Origin: a bacterium
Lineage (GTDB): Bacteria > Patescibacteriota > Patescibacteriia > JACPHY01
Direction of reading: 5' to 3'
Assembly (NCBI GenBank): GCA_030647005.1
Contig: JAUSKG010000021.1
Location: 27,105-91,104 of the forward strand
DNA length: 64,000 nucleotides
Position 1 is the stretch's first letter. Every line of letters begins with the position of its first letter. This document shows positions 25,915 through 44,647 of this stretch, in pieces. Both the position numbers and the translations under genes were made by a program. The notes under the pieces are model-generated. The model saw only the letters and a program-made list of their open reading frames with translations, was not told the origin of the DNA and ran no database searches.

Positions 25915-27285
25915 ATGCAAGAAACACTTCGCATCGTTGACGTGCCGCAGCAGGTTGGCACAGACGTGACCATTGCCGGTCGGGTCGCATCGCGGCGGGA
26001 CATGGGGAAGATCGTCTTCCTCGACGTTCGCGATCGGTACGGGCTTCTCCAGGTTGTCCTGACACCGGACGTCCCCGTCGAGGATCGCCACGCGCCCCAC
26101 CCGAGCGTTCCCGGGACACCGGTAACGCAGAAGGATGTGCGCGAGGGCTCCTACGTCCGCATCACCGGACGCGTGAAGCAGCGCGGTGAGAAGTACGTGA
26201 ACCCGAACATCGCGACGGGCACCGTGGAGATGGAGGCGGGTCAGATCACGATCATCGCCACATCGCAACCCTTCCCCTTCGATCCCCAGGACGATCTCCA
26301 CATCGACACGTACCTCGATCACCTCCCATTCACGCTCCGTACCGACCGCGGGCGCGCGATCTTCCGCGTGCAGGCCGCTATCGTCGAGGGCTTCCGAAGC
26401 GCGCTCACGAAGCGCGGCTTCACGGAGTTCCACGCGCCGAGCATCGTCGGCGGCTCCACGGAGGGCGGGGCGAACGTCTTCACCATTGACTACTTTGGCA
26501 AGCCCGCGTTCCTCGCGCAGTCCCCGCAGTTCTACAAGCAGATCATGGTCGGCATCTTCGAACGCGCCTTCACCGTCGCCACCGCGTTCCGCGCCGAGCT
26601 CCACGCGACGAGTCGTCACCTCAACGAGTACTGCTCGCTCGACTTTGAGTTTGGCCCCATCACCGACCACCGCGATGTCATGCGCATGCAGAACGACATG
26701 CTCATTGATCTCGTCGCACACGTGCGCGCGGTCTGTGCGGACGAGATCGCCGTGCTCGGTGCCACGCTGCCGGAGGTGCCACCGACCATCCCATCGCTCA
26801 AGCTCCGCGAGGCGCAGGAGGTGCTCAAACGCGAGTTCGGCATGGATTGCGTCGGCGAGCCGGACCTCGAGCCCGAGCACGAGCGCAAGCTCTGCGAGTG
26901 GTCCGCACGGGAGCACAGCTCGGACTTCCTCTACGTCACGCACTACCCCACAGCCAAGCGTCCGCTCTACACCATGCCCGACCCCGAGGACCCCGAGTTC
27001 ACACTCTCCTTTGATTTGCTCTTCCGCGGCGTCGAAATCACCACTGGCGGCCAGCGCATCCACGACTACGAAATGCTCAAAGGCAACATCGTGAAGTGGG
27101 GCCTCGATCCTGCTAAGTTCACCTACTACCTCGAGGCCTTCCAATACGGCATGCCCCCCGAAGGCGGCCTCGCCATCGGCCTCGAACGCCTCACCCAGAA
27201 GCTCCTCGGCCTCGACAACGTCAAACTCGCCACCCTCTTCCCGCGAGACATCGGGCGCATTGATGATCGGCTGTCGGCGGGATAG
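25915..27285 (+). CDS. class IIb aminoacyl-tRNA synthetase, archaeal-type AspRS or AsnRS (456 aa)
   Basis: QSPQFYKQ, FRAE (motif 2), GGLAIGLERL (motif 3), N-terminal OB fold; Asp vs Asn not resolvable by eye. Confidence 0.85.
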   Translation: MQETLRIVDVPQQVGTDVTIAGRVASRRDMGKIVFLDVRDRYGLLQVVLTPDVPVEDRHAPHPSVPGTPVTQKDVREGSYVRITGRVKQRGEKYVNPNIATGTVEMEAGQITIIATSQPFPFDPQDDLHIDTYLDHLPFTLRTDRGRAIFRVQAAIVEGFRSALTKRGFTEFHAPSIVGGSTEGGANVFTIDYFGKPAFLAQSPQFYKQIMVGIFERAFTVATAFRAELHATSRHLNEYCSLDFEFGPITDHRDVMRMQNDMLIDLVAHVRAVCADEIAVLGATLPEVPPTIPSLKLREAQEVLKREFGMDCVGEPDLEPEHERKLCEWSAREHSSDFLYVTHYPTAKRPLYTMPDPEDPEFTLSFDLLFRGVEITTGGQRIHDYEMLKGNIVKWGLDPAKFTYYLEAFQYGMPPEGGLAIGLERLTQKLLGLDNVKLATLFPRDIGRIDDRLSAG

Positions 27286-27317
27286 TGTGTTCGTTCAGGA
27301 GAACATGCAATCACTCT

Positions 27318-27938
27318 ATGGTTATTACTGATCCGCCATCAAACGAAGGGGTTATGGTTCAGCGTGGTTGGGGATGGGTGCTCGCGTCTAGCGATAACGT
27401 CCCTCACGATCCCAGTGAGCATTGTCCAACACGGGATGTGTTTACGGGTCGGTTAGATCATGCCCGCATTCTTCTCGAGCGAGCACCAAAATTTCAGATG
27501 ATAGCATCGGAGCTCATCGCTGCGGTCGGAGAGATTGGGAACAACACGTTTGATCACAACATTGGACAGTGGCGAGATGTTCCAGGGTGTTGGTTCGGGT
27601 GGATGCTTGGAGATGGACATTGGACAGCGGTGATCGCCGATCGCGGCCAGGGTATTCTTGCAACATTGCGTCGTATTCGGCCGGAGCTCCATGATGATAT
27701 GGAGGCGCTTCGTGTTGCGTTCCGCGAGGTGATTTCTGGACGATCTCCCGAGCAGCGGGGGAATGGATTGAAGTTTGTTGCATCCGTCATCGGGCAACGC
27801 GGGGATCGGCAGCTTGAATTTCATTCTGGAGCAGCACAAGTCGTTCTGACATCTCCTAGAAAAGGACGGCACGAGGAATGGTCTCCATCTGTACGGGTGC
27901 TCCCGGGAACCCTTGCCATCCTTTCGGTTATGGTGTAG
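27318..27938 (+). CDS. minimal GHKL-superfamily ATPase, RsbW/SpoIIAB (anti-sigma serine kinase)-like
   Basis: N-box EIGNNTFDH, G1 VIADRGQGI (DxGxG), G2 GRSPEQRGNGLKFV; gene lies at edge of low-GC island; start ATG 27318 (alt GTG 27285). Confidence 0.7.
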   Translation: MVITDPPSNEGVMVQRGWGWVLASSDNVPHDPSEHCPTRDVFTGRLDHARILLERAPKFQMIASELIAAVGEIGNNTFDHNIGQWRDVPGCWFGWMLGDGHWTAVIADRGQGILATLRRIRPELHDDMEALRVAFREVISGRSPEQRGNGLKFVASVIGQRGDRQLEFHSGAAQVVLTSPRKGRHEEWSPSVRVLPGTLAILSVMV

Positions 27939-27953
27939 TATTTTGGTACAACT

Positions 27954-28244
27954 ATGAGAATTGCATTGAGTAAATTTGGGCCCATGTTGGTCTCCCGTCC
28001 CGCAGGTCGTGATGCCCTGTTGATTGCTTCTGCATACCTTACGCCCGTATCGGAAACCGAGTCGATCGAGATCGATTTTACCGGCGTGCATGTACTCACT
28101 CCCTCATGGGCAGACGAGTTTGTTACCGGACTCCGTAAGAAATACGGAGATCGGCTCGTGTTGCTTCCCTCCGATAATGTTTCCGTAAAGCTTACCCTTG
28201 CAACGATCGGTCAATCTCCGAAAACCGGACCTGACGCGGTTTGA
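27954..28244 (+). CDS. small STAS-like protein, DUF4325-type (96 aa)
   Basis: ...SIEIDFTGVHVLTPSWADEFVTGL... pattern of the STAS-like DUF4325 family (assignment from memory, not searched); 16 nt after the ATPase. Confidence 0.6.
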   Translation: MRIALSKFGPMLVSRPAGRDALLIASAYLTPVSETESIEIDFTGVHVLTPSWADEFVTGLRKKYGDRLVLLPSDNVSVKLTLATIGQSPKTGPDAV

Positions 28245-28254
28245 CACGTTCTGT

Positions 28255-28360
28255 GGAAAAAATCGGACCTGACACGATTACCTCTCACCATCTCGTTTTC
28301 ATAGCCCTCCCACACACGGCTGGGCGTTAGAAAAAAATCGGACCTGACACGATTACCGTT
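28255..28360 (+). repeat. Two direct copies of gaaaaaatcggacctgacacgattacc (GACACGATT family)
   Basis: Exact 27-mer at ~28255 and ~28331. Confidence 0.7.
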
Positions 28361-28389
28361 TGCTCGTCGAGAATTTAAAATAGAAACGT

Positions 28390-28584
28390 ATGCTGGACCT
28401 CAAACGCACTCTACTTGCAAAGGAGTTATTTCTGGCTGCCATTATCTTCTATGCCATGGCATGGTTGATCGGAGGTATTTTTGGAGACGCGCTGAAGCTA
28501 ATAGGGTTCATTGCCCTGGCCATGGCAATTATTGCTGCGATTCGTGAAGTCAGGAGAGAGGCAGCAGACAAATCAAAAAAATAA
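28390..28584 (+). CDS. hypothetical 64-aa protein with two TM helices and charged C-terminus
   Basis: MLDLKRTLLAKELFLAAIIFYAMAWLIGGIF...IGFIALAMAIIAAIREVRREAADKSKK; low-GC island. Confidence 0.45.
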   Translation: MLDLKRTLLAKELFLAAIIFYAMAWLIGGIFGDALKLIGFIALAMAIIAAIREVRREAADKSKK

Positions 28585-28602
28585 GGTAAATATAGATAGG
28601 AT

Positions 28603-28836
28603 AATGGTAGGATAATGGTGTCAGGTCTGATTGTCCGTTAAAAAGCGGACCCGACACGATTACTCTTGGGCGGTGGCGGATGTGACGCCGTGATATGATG
28701 ACCGCATGAAACCGGCACAGAGCAACATCGCTCACCTCGACGGCGCGAACGGAACGGAAGGTGCGAGCGATGGGAAAAAGAATCAGACCTGACATCATCA
28801 TCCTTGCTTTCTTCCGCTTGACACCATTATCCTCCA
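28603..28836. mobile_element. ~230-bp GC-rich insert bounded by inverted repeats (aggataatggtgtcaggtctgatt ... aatcagacctgac ... ttgacaccattatcct)
   Basis: Inverted 13-16-mers read directly; internal segment ~62% GC inside ~35% GC surroundings. Confidence 0.4.
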
Positions 28837-28844
28837 CTAAAAAT

Positions 28845-29417
28845 ATGGATAAACTAGAAAATATTTTTATTGGTTTTAGAAATAGTTCATTTGATGAAAT
28901 AATCAAGTTAAATCTTAACCACACTATTTCAAACAAGGAAAAACTAATTTTTAGAACTATTTTTGAAAATTCTGCAAATTTAATTGCTTCGTTTATCAAA
29001 GAAATAAAAGCAAGTAAGTCAATAGAGGAAAAAGATTTTGACTGGATGATGCTACTTTATGTTTTTGTTTGTGTTCAAGAACTTCATGACATACTAGATC
29101 GGGTAGAGAAAACAGACGATGCTCATATAAAAAATACACTGGATGTTAATAAACAAGATTTGATAAATCATCTTAAGAAAATATTAGGTGGTAAAGATAT
29201 GGGTAGTGTTGTGGATAAAACGTTTAATCACATAGAATCTTCTGATAAGGAATCGGGTAATTACAATGAATTTGTTGTTGGAAGAACTTATGTAATTTTT
29301 AGTATGTTAAAAGAAAATCAAGTTAATATTGAAAATATGTCAAGTGAAAAATTACTACAAATTTCAGAAGAAAATTATAAAAATAGTATAGTAAATTTTG
29401 TAAAGATTTGTGTCTAG
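28845..29417 (+). CDS. hypothetical protein, very low GC (~28%), 190 aa
   Basis: ATG 28845 (track ORF starts 28761); Lys/Asn/Ile-rich; no recognisable domain. Confidence 0.5.
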   Translation: MDKLENIFIGFRNSSFDEIIKLNLNHTISNKEKLIFRTIFENSANLIASFIKEIKASKSIEEKDFDWMMLLYVFVCVQELHDILDRVEKTDDAHIKNTLDVNKQDLINHLKKILGGKDMGSVVDKTFNHIESSDKESGNYNEFVVGRTYVIFSMLKENQVNIENMSSEKLLQISEENYKNSIVNFVKICV

Positions 29418-29526
29418 TAAAGAGAGCAAGGTAGAAAAAGGGAAAAAGGAAAGGGGAGATAAAGAGAGATAAAGTGAAAAAATGGACTTGACCCCTTTCT
29501 TGTCTTTCTTGCATTTGCTGCTTTCT

Positions 29527-29583
29527 TGACACTATAAAATCGGACTTGACACGATTTCCGTGGACATGACACGATTTCCGACA
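29527..29583 (+). repeat. Three tandem GACACGATTTCC copies (GACACGATT family)
   Basis: aaaatcggacttgacacgatttccgtggacatgacacgatttccgacacgatttcc immediately upstream of ATG 29594. Confidence 0.7.
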
Positions 29584-29593
29584 CGATTTCCAT

Positions 29594-29899
29594 ATGTGGG
29601 AGGATCTCGACAAAAAAGAAAAAGGGGAAGTCGTGAATTTGGGACTGGCTATTTTGGTCGGCTTGCTTTTCTTGACATATTTTATTCGGGGCGTGAGAGA
29701 TGCTCCTCATGTAGCTGACTACCGTGAGCAATTCAGTGACTGTATGGAGGGTGCAAAGAATGGTCAGGAGCGCTATTTTTGTAAGGAGCATTTTGGTGAA
29801 CCAATGCTTTGGTTACAATTCAAGGAATGCAAGAAGGACCAAAAAAATAAAGTATGTAAAAAAATATTAAATGAACAGCTAATGGATCTTTACAAATAA
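29594..29899 (+). CDS. hypothetical 101-aa protein, N-terminal TM anchor, Cys-rich ectodomain
   Basis: VVNLGLAILVGLLFLTYFI then CMEGAKNGQERYFCKEHF...KECKKDQKNKVCKK. Confidence 0.5.
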   Translation: MWEDLDKKEKGEVVNLGLAILVGLLFLTYFIRGVRDAPHVADYREQFSDCMEGAKNGQERYFCKEHFGEPMLWLQFKECKKDQKNKVCKKILNEQLMDLYK

Positions 29900-29902
29900 T
29901 TT

Positions 29903-29965
29903 GCAGAAATCGTGTCAATGCAGAAATCGTGCGAAAAACCGTGTGCCAAATCGTGTCAGGTCTGC
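29903..29965 (-). repeat. Three inverted-orientation copies of the GACACGATT motif
   Basis: cagaaatcgtgtcaatgcagaaatcgtgcgaaaaaccgtgtgccaaatcgtgtcaggtctg. Confidence 0.65.
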
Positions 29966-29977
29966 TCTGTTAATAAA

Positions 29978-30110
29978 GGGGTCAAGTCCATTTCTTCGAT
30001 GATGACGGCTATAGGGAGCACGAGGTGATCGAGTGCACAGATAAAGGGGTCAAGTCCATTTATTTGACGATGACGGCTATAGGGAGCACGAGGTGATCGA
30101 GTTTGGCCCA
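29978..30110 (+). repeat. Two tandem ~68-bp units (ataaaggggtcaagtccattt...gatgacggctatagggagcacgaggtgatcgagt) plus partial third
   Basis: Near-identical units at 29978-30045 and 30046-30113. Confidence 0.7.
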
Positions 30111-30197
30111 TTTCCCTTTCATAGAGGGAATACGAAGTGATCCAGAGCACTGCTTGGGGGGGGGTAGAGAAGGGTTGATCGAACGCGGCGTGCCGTC

Positions 30198-30659
30198 TCA
30201 TTGCATCGAGCAGAGGGTTGAGAAATCCGAGACCGAGAGCTCCGGGATTGGCGATGTCGTAATGGCAGCGCAATGACGCTTGTCCCTCGTGAAGCGTGCG
30301 AGGTAGAAGGAGCAGCTCCCGCGCTCGCCGTCGTTTTGTTGCTGTGCACACGTTTGCACGGCGTTGGCAGCGTCATTGAGGTCGCAGCGTTCCTCGATAT
30401 CCGCTGGACATGGTGCGTTGACGCAGACAAGTTGGTGTTCCACAGCGCTGTAGGAGCCGTTGAGTTTTCGACACCACTCCTCGGTGCGGCCGGTGACCTC
30501 GTACTGTCGCGCTGCCTGGGCAGGATCATCTGGCCATGCGGCATCATATGCCGCTCGACGTTGATCATCCGCTGCACGCCGCGCAACTGCCATGACAACG
30601 ATCGCGACAACAAGCGCAGCAATGGCGAGGAGTGCGATAGTTTGGTTGCGACGCGACAT
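30198..30659 (-). CDS. hypothetical secreted/membrane-anchored Cys-rich protein (153 aa)
   Basis: N-terminal TM IALLAIAALVVAIVVMAV; 10 Cys; overlapping + ORFs judged spurious. Confidence 0.55.
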   Translation of the reverse strand: MSRRNQTIALLAIAALVVAIVVMAVARRAADDQRRAAYDAAWPDDPAQAARQYEVTGRTEEWCRKLNGSYSAVEHQLVCVNAPCPADIEERCDLNDAANAVQTCAQQQNDGERGSCSFYLARFTRDKRHCAAITTSPIPELSVSDFSTLCSMQ

Positions 30660-30732
30660 ACGAGCTGGTGAGGGCCGATGCTTGAGTTTAGTTTCTTATC
30701 CCGTTCAGTATAGCACGAAAATCGAAGGTGGA

Positions 30733-30822
30733 TAAAGGGGTCAAGTCCATTTCTTTGACGATGGCGGCTATAGGGAGCACGAGGTGATCCAGTGAAAAAT
30801 GGACTTGACCCCTTTCTCCTTT
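30733..30822. mobile_element. MITE-like ~90-bp element with perfect 19-bp terminal inverted repeats (aaaggggtcaagtccattt / aaatggacttgacccctttc)
   Basis: Same internal sequence as the 29978 tandem units; solo right-end copies at ~29468-29496 and ~30823-30850. Confidence 0.6.
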
Positions 30823-30917
30823 CTTTCCGACATTGACCCCTTTCTTTCCGACAGCATCTGGACGCGGTGCTGCTCGTGTGCCATACTGCATGGAGGTCTT
30901 TAGACAAGGAGGAGCTC

Positions 30918-31154
30918 GTGGGAAGAATGATGTACAGGGTGCTTGGTATCTCGGGCGCGATGCTTTCGCTCGCGCATGCTGATCCCGGACTCGTGGCTGC
31001 GGATCCCCATATGAGGGTCAGTCCGGCGAGCCAGTGGATGTTCTTCGCCCTCCTCGTCGCAGTGCTGGCCTTCGTCGCGTTCGTCGAGTACGTTTGCGAA
31101 CGTCTCTCGTACTGGTGGGCGGGTCGCAGTCGCGCAGGCCATCGCCAGGCGTGA
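30918..31154 (+). CDS. small membrane protein upstream of P-type ATPase (signal peptide + TM)
   Basis: SD aaggagga then GTG 30918/ATG 30927; MMYRVLGISGAMLSLAHA...FFALLVAVLAFVAFVEYV. Confidence 0.45.
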   Translation: MGRMMYRVLGISGAMLSLAHADPGLVAADPHMRVSPASQWMFFALLVAVLAFVAFVEYVCERLSYWWAGRSRAGHRQA

Positions 31155-31226
31155 GCAACATCGCGCAGCACCCCGCTCCTCATCGGAGTGGGGTTTTTCG
31201 TTGTGGGTTTGGTACGATAGAGGACT

Positions 31227-44135: not shown

Positions 44136-44647
44136 CGTTTTCTCCTCTCGATCGTGGCACGTTCCTTCGTGTCGATGAGTGTGCGCGGATCCTTTGCCCT
44201 GTTCGTTGGTCGGGTTGTGAAGGTACGGTGCGCACCATGTTTTTCTTCCGCACGTTCTCCCTCCAGTGGGATGACTTACGTCATTTGTTTGTTTGAAGTA
44301 TAGCTCAATCCAGACGCCTGTCAAGTATGCGCAAAAAATGTCGTGACTCCTGTCGTATCGCTCCATAGTGGGGAGGTAATCGCCTGAAATAACCGTGTGA
44401 ATGCTCAGGGATATGCAAGAGTGCTTGACGGGGTCAAGACCCCCCCCTGCATGGAAGGGGTCTGACCCCGTGGGACTTAACCCCCATTATCCGTTCGTCG
44501 AGGCGCGCACCACCTCGCGCAAGCGTCCTAGCGGCTACACGAAACTTTTTATGGGAACGGGAGTGGTTTTCACGTTGTTGCTTGACGCAGTATCGGGGGG
44601 GTACTGTGGAAGTGTCATGGGGCGTATTCATCAACATGGAGGGATCT

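Follow-up and report, generated by a model that had tools for sequence, protein, structure and literature searches.

Terminal repeats and a gene-less miniature element, probably derived from a TIRtron, in an inserted island of a Patescibacteria-like genome

RAYT-like genes that carry long terminal inverted repeats (TIRs) were named TIRYT by Di Nocera, De Gregorio and Rocco in 2013, and the elements that contain them were named TIRtrons (PMC3733652). TIRtrons have a common TIR motif, GGGGWSAS, and the families of TIR repeats are moderately abundant and occur as singles, dimers or clusters (PMC3733652). In the classification of TnpA-REP-like proteins by Quentin et al. (2018), most TIRYTs belong to subclass 2.1, whose members have C-terminal Bac_DnaA_C or helix-turn-helix (HTH) extensions and no REPs nearby (PMC6006769). 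Other systems suited to comparison are the REPIN/RAYT systems (Bertels and Rainey 2011, PMC3116915; Nunvar 2010, PMC2817692), the IS200/IS605 elements and classical MITEs such as RUP, NEMIS/Correia and ERIC. TIRtrons form a large family that is nearly unstudied, and their DNA ends have been catalogued in few genomes.

The repeats described here lie in the window (the whole 64-kb stretch of DNA that was analyzed), which comes from a Patescibacteria-like metagenome-assembled genome (MAG). With a probability of roughly 0.78, they are the TIRs and the gene-less miniature derivatives of an approximately 1-kb TIRtron with a single TIRYT gene, the product of which would act on them in trans. Judging from its predicted domains, TIRYT is an IS200/RAYT-like Y1 (HUH) tyrosine transposase with a C-terminal DnaA-C HTH domain. 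As in the described TIRtrons, a GGGG-led TIR brackets a Y1/HUH gene with a DnaA-C HTH at locus L013, from a metagenome (related TIRs do so at L028, L029 and L032), the right TIR extends into the gene at its 3' end and the TIR is not palindromic. The window itself contains one solo copy (29476), one dimer (30730-30819) and one tandem group (29972-30145). The window sequence GGGGTCAA fits GGGGWSAS at seven of eight positions, with A instead of S at position 8, and the partner copies at L019 (GGGGTCAG) and L003 (GGGGACAG) fit it fully. The locus differs from the described TIRtrons in its Patescibacteria-like MAG host, in the absence of a cognate gene from 64 kb, in the head-to-tail tandem arrangement of its left-end units, in the confinement of all copies to one inserted island and in the presence of a second, related repeat family in the same island. 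It is thus an element of a known kind, for which only the host and the local arrangement are new.

Five exact copies of the 19-mer AAAGGGGTCAAGTCCATTT are present in the window, all of them in a single 1.35-kb cluster (29480-30815), starting at 29975, 30043 and 30734 on the forward strand and at 29480 and 30797 on the reverse strand. Shuffling gave an expectation of 0.01 copies, and no shuffle attained five. The three forward copies stand at the head of units of 63-68 nt, two of which are in tandem, and the inner 23-mer GCTATAGGGAGCACGAGGTGATC occurs exactly three times (30008, 30076 and 30767; 0 expected). TRF reported a tandem repeat at 29973-30102 (period 68, 1.9 copies, 95% matches, score 239), and a repeat search returned three 63-nt copies (29972, 30040 and 30731) with 94-95% identity. 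Unit 1 (29972-30039, forward strand; repeat search, TRF and motif counts) consists of the left-end-type TIR AATAAAGGGGTCAAGTCCATTT and, after it, an inner segment of 44 nt, and unit 2 (30040-30107, forward strand; TRF, repeat search and alignment) is 94% identical to it. A degenerate third unit without the 19-mer (30100-30145, forward strand; repeat search and alignment) has the inner segment TAGAGGGAATACGAAGTGATCCAG; it lacks the outer 9 nt of the terminal motif and shows 79-83% identity to the other units over 24 nt (30122-30145). A reading made earlier from the sequence only had described two near-identical 68-bp units plus a partial third and had argued against a CRISPR array, and both points hold: the units are real, with a more diverged third, and they abut head to tail with a 44-nt inner part that is itself repeated. 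A CRISPR array was rejected, as there are no unique spacers of similar length between short repeats. The identity of 94-95% between units, the perfect 19-mers and a base composition that has not drifted toward that of the host together point to a recent origin or a recent arrival.

The tandem units alone do not fold significantly (z = -1.6, 0.0 and -0.2). A single TIR folds at just -1.1 kcal/mol and is therefore not self-complementary, as is expected of TIRs and not of REPs. In the left-end-type copies (29975, 30043 and 30734) the TTGAC box lies 2-3 nt further inward than it does at L013, and this box is the sole part that the 44-nt inner segment shares with TIRtron leaders or first codons, no convincing alignment to these having been obtained. 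For the remaining 35-40 nt of the unit, alignment gave no origin in TIRtron leaders. Because the inner segment cannot be aligned past the TTGAC box, the label "left-end type" is tentative and is used here provisionally. The unit also contains CTATAGGGAG, which resembles the T7 promoter core; this idea was dropped because the part upstream of the core mismatches.

The 90-bp miniature (30730-30819, forward strand; repeat search and folds) is formed by a left-end unit (30731-30793) and a right-end TIR (30795-30819), and is predicted to be a hairpin with a 23-bp stem. Its arms (30730-30752 and 30797-30819) are 23 nt long and 96% complementary, with the inner 19 nt perfect, which bears out the view in the sequence-only reading that the element is closed by a perfect inverted copy of its first 19 nt. 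Folding of the 90-bp unit, which had been suggested there as a check, gave one long and stable hairpin both as RNA (-42 kcal/mol, z = -5 to -7) and as single-stranded DNA (-25.8 kcal/mol, z = -7.8). As a side effect, the modeled hairpin can make a strong DNA or RNA stem between ORF153 and the next gene. The same reading had placed two solo right ends near the island's distal boundary, of which one is real. The solo right-end-type TIR GAAAAAATGGACTTGACCCCTTTCTT (29476-29501, reverse strand; repeat search and 19-mer count) has 23 nt identical to 30795-30817, but the supposed second copy near 30823 is only the 14-nt tip fragment TTGACCCCTTTCTT (30833-30846), which lies within the 15-nt direct repeat CCTTTCTTTCCGACA (30818-30832 and 30839-30853; the feature as a whole spans 30833-30853 on the reverse strand; repeat search). 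It had also located the repeats at this distal boundary, but they extend beyond it: a related family, called X below, occurs at 10 or more sites over 28256-29966.

The right-end-type copies (29476 and 30795) read AGTGAAAAA(A)TGGACTTGACCCCTTT and are identical at 24 of 25 positions to the right end of L013. In the right arm of the 90-bp element, AGT GAA AAA TGG ACT TGA (SEKWT-stop) is still in frame at 30795 and corresponds to SQKWT-stop at L013. Alignment showed that the right-end copies of the window retain the last five codons and the stop codon of the transposase gene. No target-site duplication was found around the 90-bp element, the left flank of which ends in CGAAGGT and the right flank of which is TTTCTTTCC, and the flanks of the larger interval 29972-30819 likewise have no direct repeat in common. 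The lack of a target-site duplication at the 90-bp element is consistent with HUH/Y1 chemistry, unlike the situation in classical MITEs.

Exact scans for the 19-mer returned 26 foreign loci, four in species-representative genomes and 22 in metagenomes. The four matches in the species-representative set are to be read against the approximately four expected there by chance in 596 Gb, and the window's own locus was not among them. The TTGA extension of the match is present in approximately 12 of the 26 loci (about 0.1 expected), a second, inverted TIR copy with two or fewer mismatches in six, and TIRYT coding remnants adjoin the 19-mer in eight. Comparison of these loci showed that the 19-mer of the window is identical to the TIR that brackets TIRYT genes elsewhere, and the hosts that share it include a Desulfobacter MAG, a Planctomyces MAG and the window's MAG. 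There is evidence that the right TIR is constrained by its overlap with the last codons of the gene, and this may help to explain why an identical 19-mer occurs in unrelated hosts. Three matches were set aside as coding coincidences: those at L001 (1164-1184) and L027 (1421-1439) fall on the conserved NGLDPF(IG) codons of a Cas1 gene in an organism of 25% GC, and that at L004 lies inside an unrelated ORF. The pattern among the remaining matches is not random. The Cas1 NGLDPF coincidence could mislead motif searches that use the 19-mer.

At L013, bp 74-1117 (1044 bp) constitute an intact element with TIRs at 74-92 and 1099-1117: the left TIR AAAGGGGTCAAGTCCATTC, a 31-nt leader, a gene of 328 aa and the right TIR, which overlaps the last codons and the stop codon of the gene (...AGT CAA AAA TGG ACT TGA-CCCCTTT). 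The encoded protein matches Pfam Y1_Tnp (8e-14) and Bac_DnaA_C (7e-8), and scores 76.3 bits over the whole NCBIfam REP_Tyr_transpos profile, for which the cut-off of 80 is not reached. In intact elements the TTGAC box is the inner part of a 25-nt TIR and is probably the -35 box of the gene's promoter. L002 (690 bp) is an internal-deletion derivative with a 5' deletion, which, from its junction and the L013 protein sequence, apparently arose between two AAGTCCATTC microhomologies. L016 has several internal deletions, L009 (235 bp) retains the leader, 36 codons, the last ~17 codons and both TIRs, and nothing but a TIR dimer with a ~20-40-nt spacer is present at L019, L023 and L014. The sizes run from 1044 bp (L013) through 690 bp (L002) and 235 bp (L009) to TIR dimers of 77-90 bp that include the window's 90-bp element, and alignment of these relatives showed a deletion series with the 90-bp element at its end.

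More distant TIRYT genes (57-70% identity) at L028, L029 and L032 are bracketed by GGGGTCAAGTCCGCYY, so that the core GGGGTCAAGTCC is conserved across the TIRYT family. At E < 1e-10, 6351 homologues of the transposase were found. In 57 of the best 120 TIRYT protein clusters the longest contig is shorter than 1.5 kb, which suggests that TIRYT elements are multi-copy, as multi-copy elements of ~1 kb break assemblies in this way. Several loci have duplications of the outermost 10-13 nt of the TIR tip (L013, 60-95; L017, near 290; L028, 3835-3870; L029, 3940-4060), and at L029 a stretch of 44 nt from the right end, including the terminal codons of the gene, is in addition duplicated in tandem. Several loci also contain a pair of TIRYT genes no more than a few kb apart (L013, 2986-3561; L010, 472-1275; L028, 5573-6418); the second gene at L013 and L010 is a paralogue with 34-36% identity, so that distinct TIRYT lineages co-occur and cluster.

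The 90-bp element resembles REPINs in that it is a non-autonomous inverted-repeat doublet with a long hairpin whose presumed enzyme is a related Y1 tyrosine transposase. Its arm, however, is not itself palindromic (a REP is a 20-40-nt imperfect palindrome), and the GTAG or CGTC tag is absent from the 19-25-nt TIR. The L013 enzyme also has an extra DnaA-C domain and falls short of the RAYT cut-off (76.3 bits versus 80), and TIRtron parents look multi-copy and IS-like, in contrast to single-copy domesticated RAYTs. With IS200/IS605 elements the locus has in common the HUH/Y1 chemistry and the lack of a target-site duplication, and these elements have miniature, palindrome-associated derivatives that are gene-less and retain the ends only. 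Their ends differ from those seen here in being subterminal hairpins that are unlike on the left and right, and not long terminal inverted repeats. Classical MITEs are similar in size (70-300 bp), in having TIRs and strong hairpins without coding capacity, and in being internal-deletion derivatives of an autonomous element with the same TIRs, as in the 1044/690/235/90-bp series. They differ in that here there is no target-site duplication and the parent enzyme is not a DDE transposase. The term "MITE-like" that the sequence-only reading had applied is accordingly apt for a gene-less transposon miniature with TIRs and misplaced as to its parent, which is of the Y1/HUH and not of the DDE type; for these reasons "MITE" is valid only in a loose sense.

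No TIRYT gene was detected in the 64-kb window (best tblastn E-value: 2.1), and the window copies must therefore now be non-autonomous or fossil. A TIRYT supplied in trans would have made or imported them, and by analogy with IS200/IS605 elements, for which this is established, and REP/RAYT systems, for which it is proposed, it would do so through cleavage and joining of single-stranded DNA at the TIRs. Action of a TIRYT on its own TIRs is a proposal of the papers cited, and no biochemical demonstration of it is known to us. Mobility in the window's genome is inferred by analogy with the relatives. The head-to-tail 68-bp units and the duplicated tips could stem from repeated end-directed insertion beside an end already in place, or from slippage there. 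Given the parallels at L029 (the 44-nt duplication) and in the tips at L013, L017, L028 and L029, the tandem units and the tip fragment are probably a recurrent property of TIRtron ends.

All of the repeats fall within a 3.9-kb island (27286-31220) between the genes for AspRS and a P-type ATPase. In the nearest relative for which DNA is available (L033, AspRS 72% identical), the gap between these genes is 78 nt, and tblastx collinearity with L033 is interrupted at window positions 27276 and 31221. The gene order S5-L15-SecY-...-RecO-AspRS-ATPase-YbaK-ScpA-ScpB is common to L033 and the window. The next relatives of the AspRS, the gene for which ends at 27285, have 72-63% identity and include Candidatus Uhrbacteria, and the more distant matches are other Patescibacteria. 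The GC content of the window is ~62%, with a low-GC patch at 28-30 kb, and that of the host is given as 62-67%. By GC content per ORF, the island is a mosaic of six compositionally distinct segments: ORF217 with the DUF4325 gene (0.53), ORF64 (0.46), ORF190 (0.26), ORF101 (0.39), ORF153 (0.59) and ORF95 (0.61). An integron attC array was considered and rejected, as RYYYAAC/GTTRRRY cores are absent at the repeat ends and the genes on either side have housekeeping functions and are collinear with those of L033.

The second repeat, X (GGACYTGACACGATT), is related to the TIR: its sites, of which there are at least 10 over 28256-29966, have the form AAAAATCGGACYTGACACGATTWCC and align in register with the right TIR AAAAATGGACTTGACCCCTTTCT. 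Two copies (GAAAAAAATCGGACCTGACACGATTACC) are at 28256-28282 and 28331-28357 (forward strand; repeat search and TIR alignment). This stretch between the DUF4325 gene and ORF64 (28256-28357) can also be described as two perfect 26-nt direct repeats, AAAAAATCGGACCTGACACGATTACC, with 75 nt spacing. Further X-type sites were identified by repeat search and alignment at 28612-28632 (inverted), 28641-28664 and 28781-28804. Directly upstream of ORF101 there are three in tandem (GGACTTGACACGATTTCC, GGACATGACACGATTTCC and GACACGATTTCC; 29536-29591, forward strand; TRF, repeat search and alignment), and directly downstream of it there are three to four inverted ones (GAAATCGTGTC and variants; 29905-29966, reverse strand; repeat search). 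Wherever two segments of distinct composition meet in the island, X sites or main TIRs are present. Searches with the X repeat did not return an intact element with an X-type end, and each of three scans of viral contigs, for the TIR, for the inner 23-mer and for X, gave 0 matches.

Two of the island's ORFs are closely associated with these repeats. ORF101 (29594-29899, forward strand; ORF list and homologue search) encodes an orphan small protein with one hydrophobic segment and lies between the inverted X arrays and the TIRs; an exhaustive HMMER search returned only itself and one weak match. Its GACACGATTTCC arrays, with three copies on the upstream side and three to four in inverted orientation on the downstream side, are nested within the main TIRs at 29476 and 29972. 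All of the tips at this ORF face it, opposite to the orientation in a normal TIR-bounded element, and ORF101 lies outside both adjacent ends; this layout is unexplained by simple insertion of TIR-bounded elements. ORF153 (30198-30659, reverse strand; ORF list), listed as a hypothetical protein in the annotation of the source MAG, has the tandem left-end units on one side and the 90-bp element on the other, and thus lies between perfect 19-nt inverted TIRs (29975 or 30043 versus 30797). It is an orphan that matched only itself in homologue searches and nothing in Pfam or PADLOC.

This layout could also be produced if the TIR-like sites were the recombination or insertion sites of a cassette array built by a Y1/HUH enzyme, with foreign segments, each bearing one small orphan gene, captured serially at TIRYT-type ends in an integron-like manner. 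The six-segment mosaic (GC 0.26 to 0.61), the TIR or X clusters at all segment boundaries, the inverted sites flanking both ORF101 and ORF64, the perfect 19-nt inverted TIRs around ORF153 and the orphan status of both ORFs tested (ORF153 and ORF101) would suit such an array. However, tblastn found no transposase gene in the window, the orientation of the sites varies from segment to segment, no second array of this kind was present among the 33 loci, and the pattern could equally well have come about if decayed elements had inserted, one within another, at their ends. We consider a cassette array improbable; nothing positive beyond this pattern speaks for it. The same degree of doubt attaches to the form of it in which the interval between the AspRS and ATPase genes is a hot spot where, with TIRYT-type ends as reusable insertion sites, a tiny Patescibacteria genome has gathered small orphan genes from different donors, and there is similarly little reason to favor ORF153 as a passenger that has taken the transposase's place inside a TIR-bounded element. 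A role as a host cis-regulatory element (an iteron bound by a protein, a hairpin serving as terminator or insulator, or a small RNA) is distinctly unlikely: it would account for the high stability of the 90-bp hairpin, its position 72 nt upstream of ORF153 and the TTGAC boxes in the sites, but no Rfam family was matched even at E-values up to 10 (only tRNAs and noise), the tandem units have no significant fold, scans for sigma-70 promoter and terminator consensus sequences stayed at background level with no listed site in the repeats, and the sequence identity with transposon ends from other phyla is explained without invoking regulation.

That the 90-bp element is a classical MITE derived from an insertion sequence with a DDE transposase is very unlikely. 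Its length, its 23-nt TIRs and its lack of coding capacity are as expected of one, but there is no target-site duplication, and the genes that the identical TIR brackets are of the Y1/HUH and not of the DDE type. It is extremely unlikely that the arrangement as a whole is an assembly artefact, whether from a chimeric join or from a repeat that was resolved wrongly. Points in favor of an artefact are the origin of the sequence from a MAG, the AT-rich DNA within a GC-rich contig and the break of a Logan contig inside unit 1. That contig (L005, from SRR13727527), however, is an independent assembly with 100% identity to the window over 27133-30030, including the junction between AspRS and the island, and ends within unit 1; it argues against a chimeric left junction, the tandem copy number being beyond its reach. 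A read of typical length exceeds the 68-nt period, and ORF153 is in the NCBI annotation of the same 121-kb contig. An artefact at the left junction is accordingly unlikely, a statement that applies up to 30030.

Read as TIRtron derivatives, the repeats do not reveal a new mechanism; they are ordinary mobile-DNA debris in an unusual host. The case adds a clean series of deletions that leads from the intact element down to the 90-bp miniature, and provides an example from a Patescibacteria-like genome in which mobile DNA marks a rare insertion hot spot amid conserved gene order. Elsewhere in the window, a GC-rich intergenic stretch at 44420-44490 (GCTTGACGGGGTCAAGACCCCCCCCTGCATGGAAGGGGTCTGACCCCGTGGGACTTAACCCCCATTA) contains an inverted pair of GGGGWSAS-type sequences (GGGGTCAAGACC on the forward strand and GGGGTTAAGTCC on the reverse strand) together with the palindromic GGGGTCTGACCCC. 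Its similarity to the motif means that it may be a diverged TIR dimer in the same genome, and the pair is regarded as doubtful.

DUF4325 was the only match when the ORFs of the island were searched against Pfam and PADLOC. The gene concerned, encoding a DUF4325 STAS-like protein (Pfam E-value: 5.6e-8), forms a pair with ORF217, and the two are the first genes of the island (27285-28244). ORF217 shows motifs resembling those of GHKL/anti-sigma-type kinases by eye and has no Pfam match, and PADLOC returned no match for the pair. At the opposite edge, a hairpin with a T-run that resembles an intrinsic terminator (31170-31194) lies just past ORF95 (30867-31154) and 30 nt before the ATPase start. 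As this terminator-like sequence directly follows ORF95, it suggests that ORF95, at the right edge of the island, is a genuine gene with a terminator of its own.
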